Notes under the pieces: generated by a model
The model's database searches: none
Seen by the model: the letters and a program-made list of their open reading frames with translations, nothing else
What the model was told of the DNA's origin: nothing
Program-made: the position numbers and the translations under genes
IMG/VR virus record: IMGVR_UViG_3300021255_004427
Coordinates: 64,001 to 128,000 of that record
Length of the DNA stretch: 64,000 nucleotides
Direction: 5' to 3' (one strand)
Origin: a virus
Lineage: Duplodnaviria > Caudoviricetes
Shown here: piece after piece, positions 11,101-31,147 of the stretch
Numbering within the stretch: position 1 is the first letter of the stretch
Layout of the letters: each line of letters begins with the position of its first letter

Positions 11101-14100
11101 AGGCTGAAAGAGTTGCCGGCGGTGACAAAAACGAAGTTCTTGGCTATCAAAAAGTATCAGGACTATCCGTAGCCGCAGATGCTGATGAGGTAGGCCTCAA
11201 TAACGGCAGCAACAGCAAAGGCGTAAAGATGACACGCCGTCTTGCCCAGAACCTTAACCAGGAGGTCATGGATGAGAAAGGGCTCGATTCGGTTCGCCTG
11301 GCTTATGAAAAGATGTTGCAGAATGCCTCAGGGGAAGAACAGCAGCAGGAGATTCTTGACCGCTTTAACAGGCGCTATAAAGACTTTGGCGTATCCGCAA
11401 AATGGAATGCGGAAGATGGCAAGCTAACGGCCACTTACAGCGAGCCGGGAAAACTACATCGCATAAATGCAGACATAATCAAGAACATGGAAGAGGAAAT
11501 AATCCGTGGTCAGGGATTTGGAGCTATATGGGGTGATGGTGTTAGTACTGGCGGGGTTCGCGGTGTTATCATAGACGGGCATGTTCACGCAGATGATATG
11601 CGCGAACTTAAACAACGTGGCATCAGTGAGAAGTCCATCAATACAATGATTAAAGCTTATGAAGAAGCCCACGGAGCTAAAATCATTGGCATGAATAACT
11701 TCCTTAACCAGTATTCTTATCAGTCTAGTGCCGCGGCCAATGAATTCAACGCCCAGATGGGAAAAGCCGAAACAGAAGCTGAACGCGCTGAATTAATCGA
11801 GCGGTTTACCAAAAACAATCCTGATTTTAATGTAAGAGGAATCTGGGAACTAAACACAGATAAGCAGTTCTTCCAAAATGACCCCCTAAACCCAAATAAT
11901 CGTAATATGATTATTGATATGGGCGAAGGCGCAGTTCAGCGCTACGTTGCTGTGCCAATGGAAAACCTTTCCATGATGGATGCAGCAAATGGAGAAGGAG
12001 TAATATCTGGTTCGGCTGTCCGCGACAATATTAGCAGCCTCCACCACTATTTCGAAGAGCAAAGATATCGCGGCGCTACAGTAAGCGAGTTTTATAAGAA
12101 CAAGTACAATGAAGGAATTAGCGATCTTCTAAAATCAATAGTAAATCTCTCGGTTCACAAAGAAGGCGCTGCAGCTCAGGTAACAAGCGATTATATTACG
12201 GGGTCTGGCACATTCAAGTCTGATATTATCCGTATGACCGCAGACAATAATTTTGAGACCATTGTTCGTAATGAAGCGGGCGAAGTTATAAACGGCAAAA
12301 AGAAAGCCTTTGGTTTGATGAATACAGCCAAAGTAGATGGGATAAGTCTTGCTGATCATATCAGGGCCGGGCACAATATTAACGCTACATTCCTTGGTGA
12401 AGACTTCTTTGTAAATGCCTTGCAGGATGACAGTTTGTCTGGAATTTTGGGGCAACTTGGTATAAAAGATAATAAAAAAATAGTCAATGACTTCCTCGAT
12501 AATATAAACGATGGCGGCGGATTAGGCTTGCAGATGAGACAGCCTGCCGAGTATAATACGTCAGTCGGTGGTTCGTATTTATTTCTTGACAGAAGCCTTT
12601 CTCGTAACCAGGCAAGAATAACGCAAAGTACGCTTGCCGGCCAGAACGGCGATAAGGATGGTGACTTGGTTTATGCACTGCTTGCCCGTGCAGATGCACA
12701 AATTAAAGTTACCGGTGTAAACGAGGACGGAGAAGAAGTTGTATTAAAATCCTTCAATGCTCGCATTAACAACCTGCAGAAAAACCTGATAGAAAATAAT
12801 CTGGATGTCGGGAATCTTGGCATTAAAGACCTGGAGAATTTCTCGGACGTAAAGATAAGTGTGGGTTTTTCCGGGAAAAACCCGTTTGAGGCATACGCAC
12901 GTTCAGCGGAAGTGATTGGTACGTCTTCACTCACAGGTATAAAAAGGGATGTACTAACGCTTAAAGACCTAGACAAAGCTATCAAGATCCGTAACGAAAA
13001 AGCAGAGACAATGGTCGCCGGCAGGGTTTGGAATTCAAATCAGTTAAGCGTGAGCGACCGCAATAAATTCAATGAAGCTTTTGAGCAGGAAATTCAGGGC
13101 AGCAAGGAATTTAACCAAGCTATTGAGGAGTACAACAAAGAGAATGGTAAATCAATAACTGCCGAAACCCTGACGGCAGATAGTTTAGCTACAAATTCTG
13201 ACGGACAGGGCATTGCAGACAGATACTTGAAAATTCGATACGGTAAAGACACTACGTCGGATGAGTATAATGCAGAGGCCGAAATTCTGGCCAACAGGGT
13301 AAATAAGCTGAATATGGATGATGAAATTGCAGCACATATGGGCAAAGAAAGAGCTGGTATTTTTAATATGAATACCTACCGCATGACCCAGGTTGCACAT
13401 ATTATCCGCGATCACGGTTTAGACAATGGCTTAACCGATGCTGACTTAAATATAATCAACCAGTTCATGGTCCATGTCAAGGAAGCTGGTCAGGTTCCTA
13501 AAAACGCGACAGCGACAGCTTCTAGTCTGGAAGGGCTCGACACGGCGCTGAAAGACTTCTGGGGTATTGGCACGGGCCGGGATGGAGTAGTCTATCAAAA
13601 ACAGGCAGACCCGACAAAGTTAAACGAACTCATTGATGAAGTTTACGCTGGAGGCATTAAGGAGTTTAAAAAACTTCCGGAACGGATGAAGGATCCGGAA
13701 ACCGGCACTGTGAGTGCTGACAGGATTAAGGAAGCTTTCAGCCATCTTATGTCTGAGGGCAATTCCCTTAATGGTGAGCTTTACAAAGCTTTGCGTGTCG
13801 GCTATGCGATGGATATGTCGTACACCAATATTGGTACGCCAGATGAAGGCGATATGCTCTACCGTGCTAATCAGATTAAAGATAAGTGGGTAGAAGACAT
13901 TGGGTTTGAAGATGCCAAGACGCAGCACGTCGATATTATGACAACTCCGTCAAGGATCGCGGGAACCTCTGAATTTAGCGACACACCGTATACCCCGGAC
14001 GAAATGATTGGAGATCTTCCGGAAGGCGAGCTGACAATGGGAGATCAGGTGCGAGGCCTGTTAAGTTCGATAAAAAAGAACTTCAAGGGGCATGGTGCGA

Positions 14101-26521: not shown

Positions 26522-27046
26522 ATGCTAGATTTAGAAATGACGGACAATGGAGATCTTGCATGGTCTTCGGTGTCGAGCTCGGGCGCTTTTCATTTAAGGT
26601 TTGCGCTGGCAGATTACAAAACGCAGCATATACATTTTCTTTGTAGGCCGACAAGCCGTTTGCAAAACAAACATCGCAAGGGGCAGCGCATTCGCTTCTG
26701 TTTTGCGGAACCAGGAGAAGAGTTTAAGGTACAAACCGGCTTGGTTCAGAATGAAGATGAACGACTACAAGCACTCTACATTGCACTTCGCACAGAGCTT
26801 GGCGATGTAAATGACGATACGGTGGGTTCTGATTTCTATAAAGAGGCTCACCATATCATAGCAGATGCTAATGATTTATCGACTATCCGTGATAAAGCTG
26901 CGGAAGTAGTTGAACGCTTCTTTCCGGGCTCAGTCCTCGAAGCTGAATACTCAATATGTCCAGAGGCAAAAAACTTTAAGTATCAGTCAGTGAAGTTTAC
27001 AATAAAAGATAAAGACAACGAGGTTGTAGCTTCGTTTGTATTCTGA
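26522..27046 (+). CDS. Putative baseplate wedge protein (gp25/GPW-like)
   Basis: N-terminal MLDLEMTDNGDL and LQALYIALRTELGD...VGSDF resemble gp25/W-like proteins; position between lysin and baseplate J. Confidence 0.5.
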   Translation: MLDLEMTDNGDLAWSSVSSSGAFHLRFALADYKTQHIHFLCRPTSRLQNKHRKGQRIRFCFAEPGEEFKVQTGLVQNEDERLQALYIALRTELGDVNDDTVGSDFYKEAHHIIADANDLSTIRDKAAEVVERFFPGSVLEAEYSICPEAKNFKYQSVKFTIKDKDNEVVASFVF

Positions 27047-27072
27047 GAGAGCGAAAGCTCTCTATTTTTTTT
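27046..27072 (+). terminator. Intrinsic terminator upstream of the NAD cassette
   Basis: AGAGAGC-GAAA-GCTCTCT followed by ATTTTTTTT. Confidence 0.85.
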
Positions 27073-27102
27073 GAAAAAATTTGCTTTGCTGTAAAAATAG
27101 TC

Positions 27103-27131
27103 TTGACAAATGTGGTAATGTGTACTACGAT
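27103..27131 (+). promoter_or_regulatory. sigmaA/sigma70-type promoter of the NAD operon
   Basis: TTGACA (27103-27108), 17-nt spacer, TACGAT (27126-27131); AT-rich upstream; RBS AGAGG at ~27158. Confidence 0.8.
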
Positions 27132-27154
27132 TAATGTAGTACAAGATACCACAA
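27110..27154. promoter_or_regulatory. Two NrtR-type operator sites
   Basis: ATGTG-GT-AATGTGT-AC-TACGA (27110-27130) and ATGTA-GT-ACAAGAT-AC-CACAA (27134-27154). Both are 21-bp imperfect palindromes with the GT-N7-AC core known for NrtR. Confidence 0.75.
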
Positions 27155-27170
27155 AAAAGAGGTTGATTAT

Positions 27171-27956
27171 ATGTCAGATACACAAGAAGAGAAGGAATTT
27201 CTCAAGAACTACGATGCGGCACAGTATGAAAGACCATCCGTAACAGCAGATGTTGTTATTTTTACTGTAGACAGAGATAACGAATTAAGTATCCTGTTGA
27301 TAAAGCGCGGAGGGCATCCTTTTAAGGACCATTGGGCTATCCCAGGTGGATTTCTTGAGGCTGGAAAAGAATCCATTGATGAGGCAGCCGCCCGCGAGCT
27401 GTACGAGGAAACGGGAATAAAGGTTTCTAATGGTATTGAACTTAGGCAGCTTATCACAGTTGGTGAACCGGATCGCGACCCGAGAACACATGTCGTAAGC
27501 GTAGTTTATACGGCATTGGTTCCCAAAGGGCTTCTGCATATAAAAGCAGGGGATGATGCAAAAGAAGCACAGCTTTTTAAAATCCGCAGTTGGTTCGACG
27601 AAGAAGGAAACCGCAGGCTGCGTCTTGTTGGTGATAAGATTTCACTTACCACGGATAACCTTGCATTCGATCATGCCCGCATTATAAAAATTGCATTGGA
27701 AAGGCTTAGGGGGCGGTTAGAATATACGGACGACGCCTTCGCAATGCTCAAGAATAAAAAATGTTTTAAGATTTACGAGCTCAAGAAAATTCACGAAACC
27801 ATTTTACAAAAAGTAATCGACAGAGCGAACTTCCGTAAAATGTTTATTCGAAACTTTGTCGATACCGGTAAAGTTAGAGAATTAAAAAAAGATGAAGTTG
27901 AAGGTGCTGTAAAAACAGCAATGTATATGTATGTTGGAGGAAATGAGCATGAGTAA
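27171..27956 (+). CDS. nrtR: NrtR-family regulator (Nudix domain plus winged HTH)
   Basis: YERPSVTADVVIF, LLIKRGGHPFKDHWAIPGGF, RELYEETG, RDPRTHVVSVVY, LAFDHARII; C-terminal FKIYELKKIHETIL...DRANFRK wHTH. Confidence 0.9.
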   Translation: MSDTQEEKEFLKNYDAAQYERPSVTADVVIFTVDRDNELSILLIKRGGHPFKDHWAIPGGFLEAGKESIDEAAARELYEETGIKVSNGIELRQLITVGEPDRDPRTHVVSVVYTALVPKGLLHIKAGDDAKEAQLFKIRSWFDEEGNRRLRLVGDKISLTTDNLAFDHARIIKIALERLRGRLEYTDDAFAMLKNKKCFKIYELKKIHETILQKVIDRANFRKMFIRNFVDTGKVRELKKDEVEGAVKTAMYMYVGGNEHE

Positions 27957-28500
27957 AAAAGTATTGATTGTTGTTGACATGCAGAACGATTTTATCGATG
28001 GTGCGCTGGGCACTAAAGAAGCCGAGGCCATTGTCGATAACGTAGCCAAGAAGGTTGCGGAGGCAAAAAAGAACGGCGATATCATTATCTTCACGCAGGA
28101 TACACATACGGAAGATTACCTCAACACGCAGGAAGGTAAGAATCTGCCGGTGCCTCACTGTATTAAAGGAACAGATGGCTGGAAGATAACCAACAAGATT
28201 GACATTCCTGAAGAACACCTGATATACGAAAAAGGCTCCTTCGGCTCTGGTGAACTTGGCAAAGACCTCTCCAATAGCGAGAAGGAAATCAGTGCGATTG
28301 AATTTGTCGGGCTTTGCACAGATATCTGCGTACTGTCCAACGCAGTAATTGCAAAAGCGGCACTGCCGGAAGTTCCCATCACAGTAGATGCTGCATGCTG
28401 CGCAGGCGTAACGCCGAAGAGCCATGATGAAGCTCTTGGCGCATTGCAGATGATTCAGGTAAAAGTCGTAAACCAAGGGCAGGAACCCTGGAGGGCATAA
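27949..28500 (+). CDS. pncA: Nicotinamidase (isochorismatase/cysteine hydrolase family)
   Basis: LIVVDMQNDFIDGALG, TQDTH, HCIKGTDGW, EKGSFGS, VGLCTDICVLSNA. Start moved from 27931 to the ATG at 27949, 8 nt after GGAGG. Confidence 0.88.
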   Translation: MSKKVLIVVDMQNDFIDGALGTKEAEAIVDNVAKKVAEAKKNGDIIIFTQDTHTEDYLNTQEGKNLPVPHCIKGTDGWKITNKIDIPEEHLIYEKGSFGSGELGKDLSNSEKEISAIEFVGLCTDICVLSNAVIAKAALPEVPITVDAACCAGVTPKSHDEALGALQMIQVKVVNQGQEPWRA

Positions 28501-28501
28501 A

Positions 28502-29038
28502 ATGCGCGTCGGAATTTACTTTGGTTGCTTTATCCCGCTTCATAAGGGACATGAAGCAATAATTAAAACAGCCCTAGCCGAAAATGACCATTTAATTCTG
28601 GGCGTTTGTGGGTATGATAATGACCGTGGCCATGATTATGTTCCGTTTCGGCAGCGTATCAATCTTATATCAAAGATATATGGCCGGCGCAAGAATATGA
28701 CTCTAGCGGTTGTAGATGATAAGAAAATCGGCCTTAAAGGGACATTTAGTTTAAACGCCTGGGAAATCTGGTGCAACGAACTATTCAAAAACTCTGGGTT
28801 TGACCCTAGTGACAAGGCAAATCAATACGTCTGGTATTCTGGCGAAAAGGATTATCTGGAGAAGATACAACAGCTATATCCCAGCCACGAAATGCGGCTC
28901 ATTTCCAGAGACGTAATTCCGATTTCGGGAACGGAAATCAGGGCCAATACCAGTAAATATATCACGCATATTAATCCGTTATTTGCTTTGTACTTAGCAG
29001 CACGGGAATTATTGGAGGACAATAAACATGAAGTTTAA
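28502..29038 (+). CDS. Stand-alone NadR/NadM-like nucleotidyltransferase, probable NaMN/NMN adenylyltransferase
   Basis: GIYFGCFIPLHKGH (HxGH) and ISGTEIR motifs; no kinase domain; sits between pncA and pncB. Confidence 0.75.
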   Translation: MRVGIYFGCFIPLHKGHEAIIKTALAENDHLILGVCGYDNDRGHDYVPFRQRINLISKIYGRRKNMTLAVVDDKKIGLKGTFSLNAWEIWCNELFKNSGFDPSDKANQYVWYSGEKDYLEKIQQLYPSHEMRLISRDVIPISGTEIRANTSKYITHINPLFALYLAARELLEDNKHEV

Positions 29039-30245
29039 TCAGATTATCAATTCTCTCTTGGAAACTGACCTTTACAAATTTAGCATGGGGCAGGCAATTT
29101 TCCATCAGGCCAGCGAATATGAAACCACTTGGTCTTTTAAATGCCGCAATAAAGACGTATTCTTTACGCCGGAAATGGTTGAAGAAATCCGTGAGCAGAT
29201 AAAAGCATTCTGCGGCCTGCGTTTCACGGAGGATGAGCTTCAGTATCTGGCCGGAATCAAATGGCTAAAGAAGTCTTATATCAACCATCTGCGCCTGTGG
29301 CGGCCCAACTTTGAGGATTTCGATATCAAGGCGGGCGGCGAAAAGGGCCTTATTCTTGAGGCCAAAGGCACGCTTCTGGATACATCTATGTATGAAATCC
29401 CGACTCTGGCCATTGTCAACGAGGTATATTACCGGTTCCGTGACGACTACGCATTGCTCGTTGAAGACTCCAAGGCTCGTACGCGGGCAAAAGCAGAAAA
29501 GATTCAGATGGGCAAGTATTGGCTGCCGGTATTCTCTGAATTCGGTCTGCGCCGCCGTCTTTGTGCAGAAGCGCAGGAATTTGCTGTAGAAACATTCTCC
29601 AAGCTGGATTGCCATGATGTTCTGCGCTCCTATTTTGTCGGCACCTCCAACGTTTATCTGGCCAAGAAATATGGCGTAACGCCGGTAGGCACGATGGCAC
29701 ATGAATGGATTATGTGCATGGGACAGGGCAATCACCTGTACAATCCTTCCTATTCTAACAAAGTAGCATTGGAAGCCTGGGTAAGAGAGTACGGCGTAGA
29801 TAATGGTATCGCACTTACCGATACGATTACGACGGACTGTTTCCTGCGCGATTTCAACAAGACGCTGGCTACGCTTTTCAGCGGTGTGCGCCATGACTCC
29901 GGTGACCCGTTTGTATGGGGCGACAAGATGATTGACCACTACACTCGCCTTGGCATTGACCCGATGACAAAGACGCTGTTGTTCTCTGATTCTCTGAACT
30001 TTGAGAAGGCAGATAAGATTGCTCATTATTTCGATGGCAAGGCTAAAGTAGCTTTCGGTATTGGTACATTTATTGCCAACGACACCTATGCTGAGCCCTT
30101 GAACATTGTCATGAAAGTGACGGAATGCAATGGCAGCCCGGTTGCAAAAATCTCCGATACCGTCGGCAAAGGGATGTGCAAGAGTCAGGAATATGTGGAC
30201 TACCTGCAGAGAGCTATTGACTGGCGCCTGAAGAATAAAGACTAA
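29028..30245 (+). CDS. pncB: Nicotinate phosphoribosyltransferase
   Basis: SLLETDLYKFSM, YEIPTLAIVNE, FSEFGLRRR, GTSNVYLAK, GTMAHEW, GVRHDSGDP, FSDSL, FGIGT, LNIVMK, AKISD..GK. Confidence 0.93.
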   Translation: MKFNQIINSLLETDLYKFSMGQAIFHQASEYETTWSFKCRNKDVFFTPEMVEEIREQIKAFCGLRFTEDELQYLAGIKWLKKSYINHLRLWRPNFEDFDIKAGGEKGLILEAKGTLLDTSMYEIPTLAIVNEVYYRFRDDYALLVEDSKARTRAKAEKIQMGKYWLPVFSEFGLRRRLCAEAQEFAVETFSKLDCHDVLRSYFVGTSNVYLAKKYGVTPVGTMAHEWIMCMGQGNHLYNPSYSNKVALEAWVREYGVDNGIALTDTITTDCFLRDFNKTLATLFSGVRHDSGDPFVWGDKMIDHYTRLGIDPMTKTLLFSDSLNFEKADKIAHYFDGKAKVAFGIGTFIANDTYAEPLNIVMKVTECNGSPVAKISDTVGKGMCKSQEYVDYLQRAIDWRLKNKD

Positions 30246-30248
30246 GGG

Positions 30249-31028
30249 GTGTTTTACTTGTATCCTGAATTTGATGCGAAGAAAGATAAAGAAAAGATTA
30301 TCAGCTTTTTGAGAAATTGGTTTGCCGAAAACGGCACACCGGAAACAAAAGCTGTAATAGGTATTTCCGGAGGCAAGGATTCCTCTATTGCTGCAGCACT
30401 TTGCGTAGAAGCGCTGGGGGAAGATAATGTCATCGGAGTTCTTATGCCCAATGGCATCCAGCCAGACATTGACGATGCGCTTGAGGTGGTAAAACATCTT
30501 GGTATCAAATATCGCATTGTCAATATTGAATCGTCGTACAAAGCTATGCTTAAAGCGCTGCAGTATACCGAGGCTAAAGTTGACAACAACTTCCATTTTT
30601 CAGTTACAGACCAGCTTCTTCAGAATCTTGCGCCAAGGTTACGGATGGCAACGTTATATGCTATAGCGCAGGGAGTAGAAGGTGGTGGTCGAGTTATCAA
30701 TACCTGCAATCGTTCTGAAGATTATGTAGGTTATTCGACAAAGTTCGGTGATAGCGCCGGCGACGTTTCCCCGCTTGGCGCTTATACTGTAGATGAAGTC
30801 CTGGCCATCGGAGCACTTTTGGACATTCCGGAAAGACTGGTACACAAAGCACCGTCTGACGGGCTTTGTGGTAAAACCGATGAAGATAACCTGGGCTTTA
30901 CCTATGCTGTTTTGGACAAGTACATAAAAACCGGCGAATGTGAGGATGAGCTGGTGCAGAAGCGAATTGACGAGCTGCATTATATCAATCTTCACAAACT
31001 CAAGCCAATGCCAATGGTTAAACGGTAA
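30249..31028 (+). CDS. nadE: NH3-dependent NAD+ synthetase
   Basis: VIGISGGKDS P-loop, NLAPRLRMATLY, NTCNRSEDYVGYSTKFGD, KAPSDGL, TDEDNLGFTY, HK. No glutaminase domain. TTG at 30258 may be the true start. Confidence 0.93.
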   Translation: MFYLYPEFDAKKDKEKIISFLRNWFAENGTPETKAVIGISGGKDSSIAAALCVEALGEDNVIGVLMPNGIQPDIDDALEVVKHLGIKYRIVNIESSYKAMLKALQYTEAKVDNNFHFSVTDQLLQNLAPRLRMATLYAIAQGVEGGGRVINTCNRSEDYVGYSTKFGDSAGDVSPLGAYTVDEVLAIGALLDIPERLVHKAPSDGLCGKTDEDNLGFTYAVLDKYIKTGECEDELVQKRIDELHYINLHKLKPMPMVKR

Positions 31029-31033
31029 TCAGC

Positions 31034-31065
31034 AAAAAGCTTCTATCGAATGATAGAGGCTTTTT
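31034..31065. terminator. Likely bidirectional intrinsic terminator closing the NAD operon
   Basis: AAAAAGCTTCTATC-GAAT-GATAGAGGCTTTTT. Confidence 0.85.
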
Positions 31066-31090
31066 ATTTATCCGTGGACTAAAGCATTCC

Positions 31091-31100
31091 AGATGGTAAT
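31091..31100 (+). promoter_or_regulatory. Candidate phage late-promoter motif (AGATGGTAAT)
   Basis: The same RGTAAT(A) motif recurs upstream of structural gene blocks at 42598, 46846, 53151 and 58566. Confidence 0.4.
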
Positions 31101-31147
31101 GTCTGGACTAGATAAAATTCGGAAAATACCAGATAGGAAGGAAAACA

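Follow-up and report, generated by a model that had tools for sequence, protein, structure and literature searches.

Many bacterial defense systems act by depleting nicotinamide adenine dinucleotide (NAD+), and three pathways by which phages rebuild it have been demonstrated experimentally, none of which is deamidating. Osterman et al. described NARP1 (Adps and Namat) and NARP2 (Nampt and Nmnat, as in Vibrio phage KVP40) and foresaw a combination of PnuC and NadR, which was published in 2026 as NARP3, the third experimentally shown pathway (phage Bas30; PMC13464706). Of the NAD+ enzymes in viruses, only NadV, NadM, and NadR were covered by Iyer et al. (2022). Here we describe a five-gene cassette, consisting of nrtR, pncA, an adenylyltransferase gene, pncB, and nadE, of a rumen phage, in the IMG/VR virus record IMGVR_UViG_3300021255_004427 (G000:C1), which is 224,101 bp long with a CheckV completeness of 95%. 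The window is the 64,000-nucleotide stretch formed by bases 64001–128000 of this record, and positions are those of the window unless the record or another contig is named. The cassette is probably a self-contained unit that recycles nicotinamide to NAD+, probably under induction by ADP-ribose; jumbo myophages infecting Selenomonas would have captured it, together with its regulatory region, from a host-type operon, the adenylyltransferase being a later addition from the phage gene pool that made it complete.

Like NARP2 and NARP3, the cassette is made up of ordinary salvage enzymes borne by a phage, and its adenylyltransferase and the NARP3 enzyme are both of the NadR family. However, NARP2 and NARP3 are amidated two-gene routes via nicotinamide mononucleotide (NMN), whereas the route encoded here would proceed via nicotinate and nicotinate mononucleotide (NaMN), needs NadE, and has its own regulator. 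The phage genome contains none of the three described pathways: it has no Pribosyltran_N match, as NARP1 would have, and its only NAPRTase-family match is PncB; its sole PF04095 match, relevant to NARP2, is that same PncB equivalog; and as regards NARP3, it has no NMN_transporter match, while the adenylyltransferase, at 178 residues, comprises the NMNAT part only.

The described phages that come closest are those of Li et al. (Microbiome, 2024; PMC11662467), who reported 174 "NAD-jumbo phages" in which salvage or Preiss–Handler routes are complete, including clustered pncB-nadD-nadE (for example, in Kuafu_71); phage pncA is mentioned in that paper, and NrtR does not occur in it. The phage studied here falls within the definition of a NAD-jumbo phage, being larger than 200 kb and encoding all four enzyme types, with the caveat that its adenylyltransferase is of a different type, and it shares with these phages a clustered, complete deamidating route to NAD+. 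Kuafu_71 differs in having NadD and no named regulator, and the hosts assigned to the Kuafu clade in that paper are Bacteroidota, as opposed to Selenomonas (Bacillota), to which the present phage points. The original prediction had presented the cassette as a new, third type of route; this claim does not hold, because complete Preiss–Handler clusters in jumbo phages were already on record (PMC11662467) and the third pathway is now NARP3 (PMC13464706). What the locus appears to add to the published kind is modest, namely a clear and recent Selenomonas origin, a conserved NrtR operator, and a non-orthologous replacement of NadD.

The cassette occupies positions 27103–31070 on the + strand and consists of one promoter and five translationally coupled genes between flanking terminators (Table 1). 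All five open reading frames (ORFs) were recovered on this strand, with gene junctions that overlap or lie 1–3 nt apart. The upstream terminator (27046–27063) folds at −11.8 kcal/mol (z −2.68) and the downstream one (31034–31065) at −17.3 kcal/mol (z −5.67), with none of 200 shuffled sequences equally stable. Portal, prohead protease, major head, and tail sheath proteins upstream of the cassette were matched by PHROGs, the gene just 3′ of it has weak baseplate matches, and collagen-repeat tail fibers follow further downstream; therefore, the element is a jumbo contractile-tailed phage, and the cassette lies within its tail/baseplate module. ORFs, profile matches, terminator folds, and PHROGs thus agree with the arrangement first proposed, that is, a coupled operon with its own promoter and terminators in a phage tail region.

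With respect to the Preiss–Handler route, the cassette supplies a nicotinamidase, a PncB equivalog, and a NAD synthetase with the SGGxDS loop. PncA matches Pfam Isochorismatase with 92.8 bits (3e-26), and alignment with Pyrococcus horikoshii PncA (1im5) shows that the Asp/Lys/Cys triad and the D-x-H...H metal site are conserved. PncB matches NAPRTase with 227 bits and the N-terminal domain with 99 bits, and it exceeds the cut-offs of both equivalog profiles, TIGR01514 (412 bits, cut-off 269.55) and NF003704 (469.5 bits, cut-off 379). NadE matches NAD_synthase with 179 bits and TIGR00552 with 171.2 bits (cut-off 63.65) and has the P-loop SGGKDS; because it has no glutaminase domain, it is of the NH3-dependent type. 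The component not represented is a NadD-family NaMN adenylyltransferase, the nearest family being the NMNAT domain of NadR. The adenylyltransferase, in which the GxFxPxHxGH and ISGTEIR motifs are present, matches CTP_transf_like with 31 bits and TIGR01526 (nadR_NMN_Atrans) at 1.5e-23, as against only 22 bits for the NadD model TIGR00482, which has a cut-off of 112. Its best solved relative is Lactococcus NadR (6gye, 2.8e-21), and it covers only the NMNAT part of NadR, corresponding to positions 1–157 of 325 in TIGR01526 and to residues 15–178 of 379 in the 6gye chain. The gene content and the net conversion of nicotinamide to NAD+ therefore stand as originally proposed for a four-step route; however, since the adenylyltransferase is NadR-type and not NadD, its conversion of NaMN to nicotinate adenine dinucleotide (NaAD) is a step that we infer rather than read from the family, and the order of the last two steps is unsettled.

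The first gene encodes a member of the NrtR family. Its product matches Pfam NUDIX with 74.4 bits (1e-20) and NrtR_WHD with 27.0 bits, exactly at the cut-off, and aligns over its full length with its best solved relatives, NrtR from Enterococcus faecalis (2fml, 1.7e-33) and Shewanella (3gz5). Against the NCBIfam equivalog NF050029 it scores 135 bits (cut-off 400), so that it is best regarded as a family member and not as this equivalog. The Nudix box E-x7-REUxEExGU is kept, with one extra residue before the first Glu; a near-intact box was considered as a specialty of the phage and rejected, as host NrtRs carry the identical box and it is thus a trait of the family.

Two 17-bp inverted repeats, one filling the −35/−10 spacer and the other covering the start-site region, are putative NrtR boxes. 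Both hold the GT-N7-AC core published for NrtR sites, and the strict operator pattern ([AG]T[AG]GTA-N5-TAC[CT]A[CT], 17 bp) has two matches in the 224-kb genome, both at the cassette, where 0.4 would be expected. An operator consisting of a single 18-nt inverted repeat was also considered and was replaced by the two boxes after comparison with other loci. In the sister phages on contigs L004 and L005, both boxes and the promoter hexamers are retained while the remaining intergenic DNA has diverged. The same promoter and box architecture, with half-sites identical to those of the phage, is found in Selenomonas ruminantium S137 (L098), and the double-box design recurs in many Bacillota loci, among them many nrtR loci of Lachnospiraceae, and in the viral cassette on contig L048. 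The relief of DNA binding by ADP-ribose is known for the NrtR proteins of Synechocystis and Shewanella; Rodionov (2008) reported that ADP-ribose weakens NrtR–DNA binding and that most NrtR sites have the GT-N7-AC core. From the two boxes covering the promoter and this published behavior, we infer an autoregulated operon that would be derepressed by ADP-ribose, and host and phage NrtR probably read each other's operators.

A described precedent for such a switch is found in Pseudomonas aeruginosa, in which NatT, an NAD-degrading toxin, relieves the NrtR repression of the salvage I genes (pncB, nadD2, and nadE) and the pathway offsets the toxin (EMBO J, 2024; PMC11535050). As in the arrangement proposed here, an ADP-ribose-sensing NrtR represses salvage genes and degradation of NAD+ derepresses them. 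The P. aeruginosa case differs in that the genes are on a bacterial chromosome, the toxin is the cell's own, the adenylyltransferase is a NadD paralogue, and no phage is involved. By this analogy, NrtR-gated salvage appears to be a logic that works in cells. If the phage cassette is switched in the same way, the phage would be reusing a metabolite sensor of its host to time a counter-measure.

The origin of the operon can be traced to the presumed host. The nearest cellular PncB proteins are those of S. ruminantium, S. caprae, and Selenomonas sp. (83–86% identity), followed by a tier at 66–71% that is mostly Lachnospiraceae. In a maximum-likelihood tree of PncB, the phage clade falls inside the Selenomonas clade with 100/100 support, as sister to strain S137 (92/86). 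The Selenomonas chromosomal operon (L098–L101) has the same order, nrtR-pncA-pncB-nadE, and the same double NrtR box within a TTGACA-N17 promoter, and identities to its proteins are 66–69% for NrtR, 60–64% for PncA, 83–86% for PncB, and 66–76% for NadE. However, this operon has no gene between pncA and pncB, whereas the phage has the additional NadR-type adenylyltransferase there, and the phage copy lies between tail/baseplate genes and is bounded by terminators. Close relatives of the adenylyltransferase are only metagenomic, some of them on contigs of 232–340 kb. Because the adenylyltransferase is missing from the Selenomonas operon and has only such metagenomic relatives, the phage operon is the host operon, with its four genes and whole promoter/operator region, to which a gene of the phage pool has been added. 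That the host is Selenomonas is supported independently by a non-coding repeat of about 400 bp located 5 kb before the window (G000:C1:58637–59036; L182, 637–1036), which has 96% nucleotide identity to Selenomonas copies; Selenomonas genomes contain it in multiple copies, with as many as 13 matches in one genome. It matched no Rfam family and looks like a small mobile repeat common to host and phage.

Both cassette junctions are present, with the same flanking genes, in five IMG/VR contigs (L002 and L004–L007) from five other metagenomes; a sixth contig, L003, matches only from just after nrtR onward and shows the downstream junction. In a distant relative (L097, baseplate protein 52% identical), the homologue of the 174-residue gene that precedes the cassette is followed directly by the baseplate gene, and no NAPRTase is found on its 71.7-kb contig. 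This empty site shows the cassette to be an insertion in the lineage of the studied phage. When compared with the sister phage L002, the ratio of nonsynonymous to synonymous substitution rates (dN/dS) is 0.03–0.11 for all five genes and 0.02–0.03 for flanking structural genes, and all five cassette genes are thus under purifying selection. A nucleotide search with the cassette against 50,697 GenBank phage records gave a single short match at 68%, and therefore no cultured relative is indicated.

A reasonable mechanism can be proposed from these features. NrtR of the phage, and probably also that of the host, would occupy the two boxes over the −35/−10 spacer and the start site of a promoter used by host RNA polymerase. 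Cleavage of NAD+ in the infected cell would yield free ADP-ribose, which would release NrtR and allow transcription of the operon. PncA would then deamidate the released nicotinamide, PncB would combine nicotinate with host phosphoribosyl pyrophosphate (PRPP) to form NaMN, and the NadR-type adenylyltransferase and NadE would convert NaMN to NAD+, most likely via NaAD. The benefit for the phage would be that NAD+ is kept up whatever cleaves it, be it a host NADase of the SIR2 or TIR type or the phage's own ADP-ribosyltransferase/glycohydrolase pair.

Several points weigh against this interpretation. Selenomonas hosts already carry the same operon and also NadD, because of which the gain for the phage may be only one of dosage or of independence from host shut-off. 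The route takes four steps, uses PRPP and several ATP, and does not remove the NADase, so that its value against a fast NADase is uncertain. NadR-type NMNAT domains, such as those of Escherichia coli and Haemophilus influenzae NadR, prefer NMN, and activity of the phage adenylyltransferase on NaMN is for this reason not assured. In addition, promoter-like matches in the region are no more common than in shuffled sequences (10 versus 9.1), so the consensus match does not rise above chance and the promoter call rests on conservation: the −35 box, the spacing, and the −10 position are kept in sister phages L004 and L005, in S. ruminantium S137, and in many Lachnospiraceae nrtR loci. When searched for with the NrtR of the studied phage, nrtR occurs at only 12 of 80 phage pncB loci, and the switch is therefore not general. 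Finally, we found no paper in which either an NrtR switch or a deamidating route is tested in a phage.

As to what the cassette is for, one possibility is that it is kept mainly to rescue the phage from NAD+-depleting immunity (SIR2, TIR, DSR, SIR2-HerA, or RES), with NrtR responding to the product of defense, and that it would constitute a fourth NAD+ reconstitution pathway; we regard this as a credible reading that falls short of an even chance. SIR2 and TIR NADases produce nicotinamide, on which PncA acts, and ADP-ribose, to which NrtR presumably responds, and the promoter lies under the NrtR operator. Of 24 Selenomonas species genomes, 5 encode SIR2_2 domains and 2 encode TIR_2 domains, and the studied phage is without NARP1, NARP2, and NARP3, which themselves show that the principle works in phages. 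The neutralization of an NADase toxin by NrtR-gated salvage in P. aeruginosa (PMC11535050) points in the same direction. In the PncB tree, moreover, cassettes on viral contigs, two of which are complete genomes with terminal repeats, branch among different Lachnospiraceae and Selenomonas clades, suggesting several separate captures from hosts. The Terminase_6C profile gave no matches on five other cassette-bearing viral records, whose viral nature is supported by the record metadata: two carry direct terminal repeats, and CheckV puts four at 100% completeness. Against a dedicated role of this kind, the route is slow and costly, its use in counter-defense is at present hypothetical, most phage cassettes of this kind are without NrtR, and the published reading of such clusters is NAD+ supply. 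The strictest form, in which the operon is silent until an NADase (SIR2, TIR, or RES) releases ADP-ribose and then rebuilds NAD+ from nicotinamide, is slightly less likely. If this form is correct, the cassette would be an inducible and deamidating fourth pathway, and a product of the immune system itself would trigger the phage's answer. The locus, at about 4 kb, is a compact candidate with a clear host (Selenomonas) and a defined promoter and operator, and natural variants of it carry a homing endonuclease insertion, have NadD substituted for the NadR-type enzyme, or include PnuC and kinase genes as well.

The cassette could equally be an auxiliary metabolic module without any specific role in immunity, which would supply NAD+ for a large and long infection, either after host shut-off or for ADP-ribosylation by the phage itself; this, too, we hold to be plausible without considering it the probable answer. 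The phage has convergent, overlapping genes for an ADP-ribosyltransferase (ADPrib_exo_Tox-type, 26.1 bits, cut-off 23.4) and an ADP-ribosylglycohydrolase (167 bits) at G000:C1:171231–172780 (L085, 11231–12780), the products of which would together yield nicotinamide and free ADP-ribose, and no second Nudix protein was found in its genome. The phage thus appears both to consume NAD+ and to be able to release free ADP-ribose itself, which provides a reason for the cassette that is unrelated to defense. In addition, the cassette is simply the homeostatic operon of the host, and Li et al. (PMC11662467) as well as a 2026 review read the NAD genes of jumbo phages as resource supply. However, this explanation does not account for the retention of a repressor in place of constitutive expression, and one classic phage sink of NAD+, an NAD-dependent DNA ligase, is missing from the genome and was rejected as a reason for the cassette. 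Should supply be its only function, the cassette would be one more auxiliary metabolic gene set like those already catalogued in jumbo phages.

A further alternative concerns the chemistry and leaves the net pathway unchanged. In Francisella tularensis, the NadE*/NadM route runs from NaMN to NMN and then to NAD+, and in the phage, likewise, NadE might amidate NaMN to NMN, which the NadR-type enzyme would then adenylylate. The two have in common a short, single-domain NadE and an adenylyltransferase other than NadD, and the top solved relative of the phage NadE is 3fiu (5.6e-34, 121 bits), which we take to be the F. tularensis NMN synthetase. The preference of the NadR family for NMN and the fusion of an adenylyltransferase with NadE on contig L035 also favor this order. 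However, the score of 3fiu is only slightly higher than that of 2e18, an ordinary NAD synthetase (7.7e-33, 117 bits); the Francisella adenylyltransferase is NadM-type as opposed to NadR-type; the phage NadE, being host-derived and resembling so closely the NadE of NadD-bearing Selenomonas, which presumably uses NaAD, probably acts on NaAD as well; and most sister-type phage cassettes have NadD in the adenylyltransferase slot. We therefore consider the Francisella-type order unlikely, and the classical order, from NaMN via NaAD to NAD+, is the one that we would expect with fair assurance. Profile searches of the phage genome found no Nampt, PnuC (NMN_transporter), Prs, or ribosylnicotinamide kinase domain, and no second HIGH-type adenylyltransferase; since Nampt, PnuC, and Prs are all missing, the phage's own enzymes would make no mononucleotide other than NaMN, and assignment of the adenylyltransferase to the deamidating pathway is thus favored. 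In other viral cassettes, the same slot is filled by NadD-type (L040, L009), NadM-type (L017), or NadR-type (L008, L038, L048) enzymes, and the five-gene order, NadR-type enzyme included, is also found in Butyrivibrio. The absence of NadD from such Butyrivibrio was considered as a sign that the NadR-type enzyme uses NaMN, but Butyrivibrio has NadD and the comparison is uninformative.

The least tenable alternative, Selenomonas DNA wrongly joined to a phage contig, would fit the high identity of PncB to its Selenomonas counterparts but has next to no probability, given that five independent contigs, each from a different further metagenome, show the identical junction on either side, which places the cassette in the phage as originally proposed, that the cassette, whose genes are under purifying selection, has diverged along with the flanking phage DNA, and that it holds a gene missing from the host operon and has a G+C content (0.41–0.47) in line with the phage.

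Table 1. Features of the cassette and its boundaries, in window coordinates
Feature	Position	Strand	Details
Intrinsic terminator of the preceding 174-residue structural-module gene	27046..27073	+	Stem 27046–27063, then T-run; upstream boundary of the cassette
Sigma-70-like, host-type promoter, TTGACA-N17-TACGAT	27103..27131	+	−35 at 27103–27108, −10 at 27126–27131; 10 of 12 consensus matches
Putative NrtR box 1, GTGGTA-N5-TACTAC	27112..27128	+	Inverted repeat filling the −35/−10 spacer
Putative NrtR box 2, GTAGTA-N5-TACCAC	27136..27152	+	Over the start-site region; 24 bp centre-to-centre from box 1
nrtR, predicted Nudix plus winged-helix ADP-ribose-responsive repressor, 261 residues	27171..27956	+	Ribosome-binding site AAGAGG at 27157–27162
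pncA, nicotinamidase, 183 residues from ATG 27949 (ORF opens at 27931)	27949..28500	+	GGAGG 8 nt before the ATG
Stand-alone NadR-type (N)MN adenylyltransferase domain, 178 residues	28502..29038	+	HIGH-type; profile and structure relatives
pncB, nicotinate phosphoribosyltransferase, 405 residues	29028..30245	+	Equivalog profiles
nadE, single-domain NH3-dependent NAD synthetase, 259 residues from GTG 30249	30249..31028	+	Ribosome-binding site AGGGG at 30245–30249
Strong intrinsic terminator closing the cassette	31034..31070	+	14-bp stem

Two of the gene starts deserve comment. The true start of pncA is likely the ATG at 27949, and for nadE a TTG at 30258 is perhaps a likelier start than the GTG at 30249. 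Between the cassette terminator and the baseplate gene, the motif TGGTAAT-N8-TAGA occurs at 31094–31112; if it is a promoter, the baseplate gene's own promoter survived the insertion. The 400-bp repeat outside the window adjoins a minus-strand ORF of 436 residues with a weak Rep3_N match.

Some variation is also seen among the related viral contigs. Sister phages L004 (7604–8872) and L005 have a gene for a 422-residue endonuclease with RRXRR and HNH domains between nrtR and pncA, by which the operon is split while the downstream genes are retained. The closest sister contig, L007, has about 200 extra bases between pncB and nadE (11219–11428) and a longer nadE ORF (302 residues). Sister contig L003 (1–7297) matches L005 with 99.6% identity in the part that follows nrtR, and its upstream DNA is unrelated to either L005 or the studied phage; the contig has arisen either by recombination or by chimeric assembly, and its breakpoint adjoins the endonuclease gene. 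The fusion on contig L035 (15676–16917) encodes 413 residues and lies in a 467-kb genome with terminal repeats, and a further fusion, of NrtR with an adenylyltransferase, is encoded on contig L030 (7930–9384, 484 residues). Finally, contigs L048 (4655–10739) and L052 (4998–11961) have an extended cassette comprising nrtR, a radical-SAM-like gene, a NadR-type adenylyltransferase, PnuC, a P-loop kinase, pncA, a second NadR-type adenylyltransferase, pncB, and nadE, which, as judged from its gene content, appears to combine a split NARP3-like branch with the deamidating branch.

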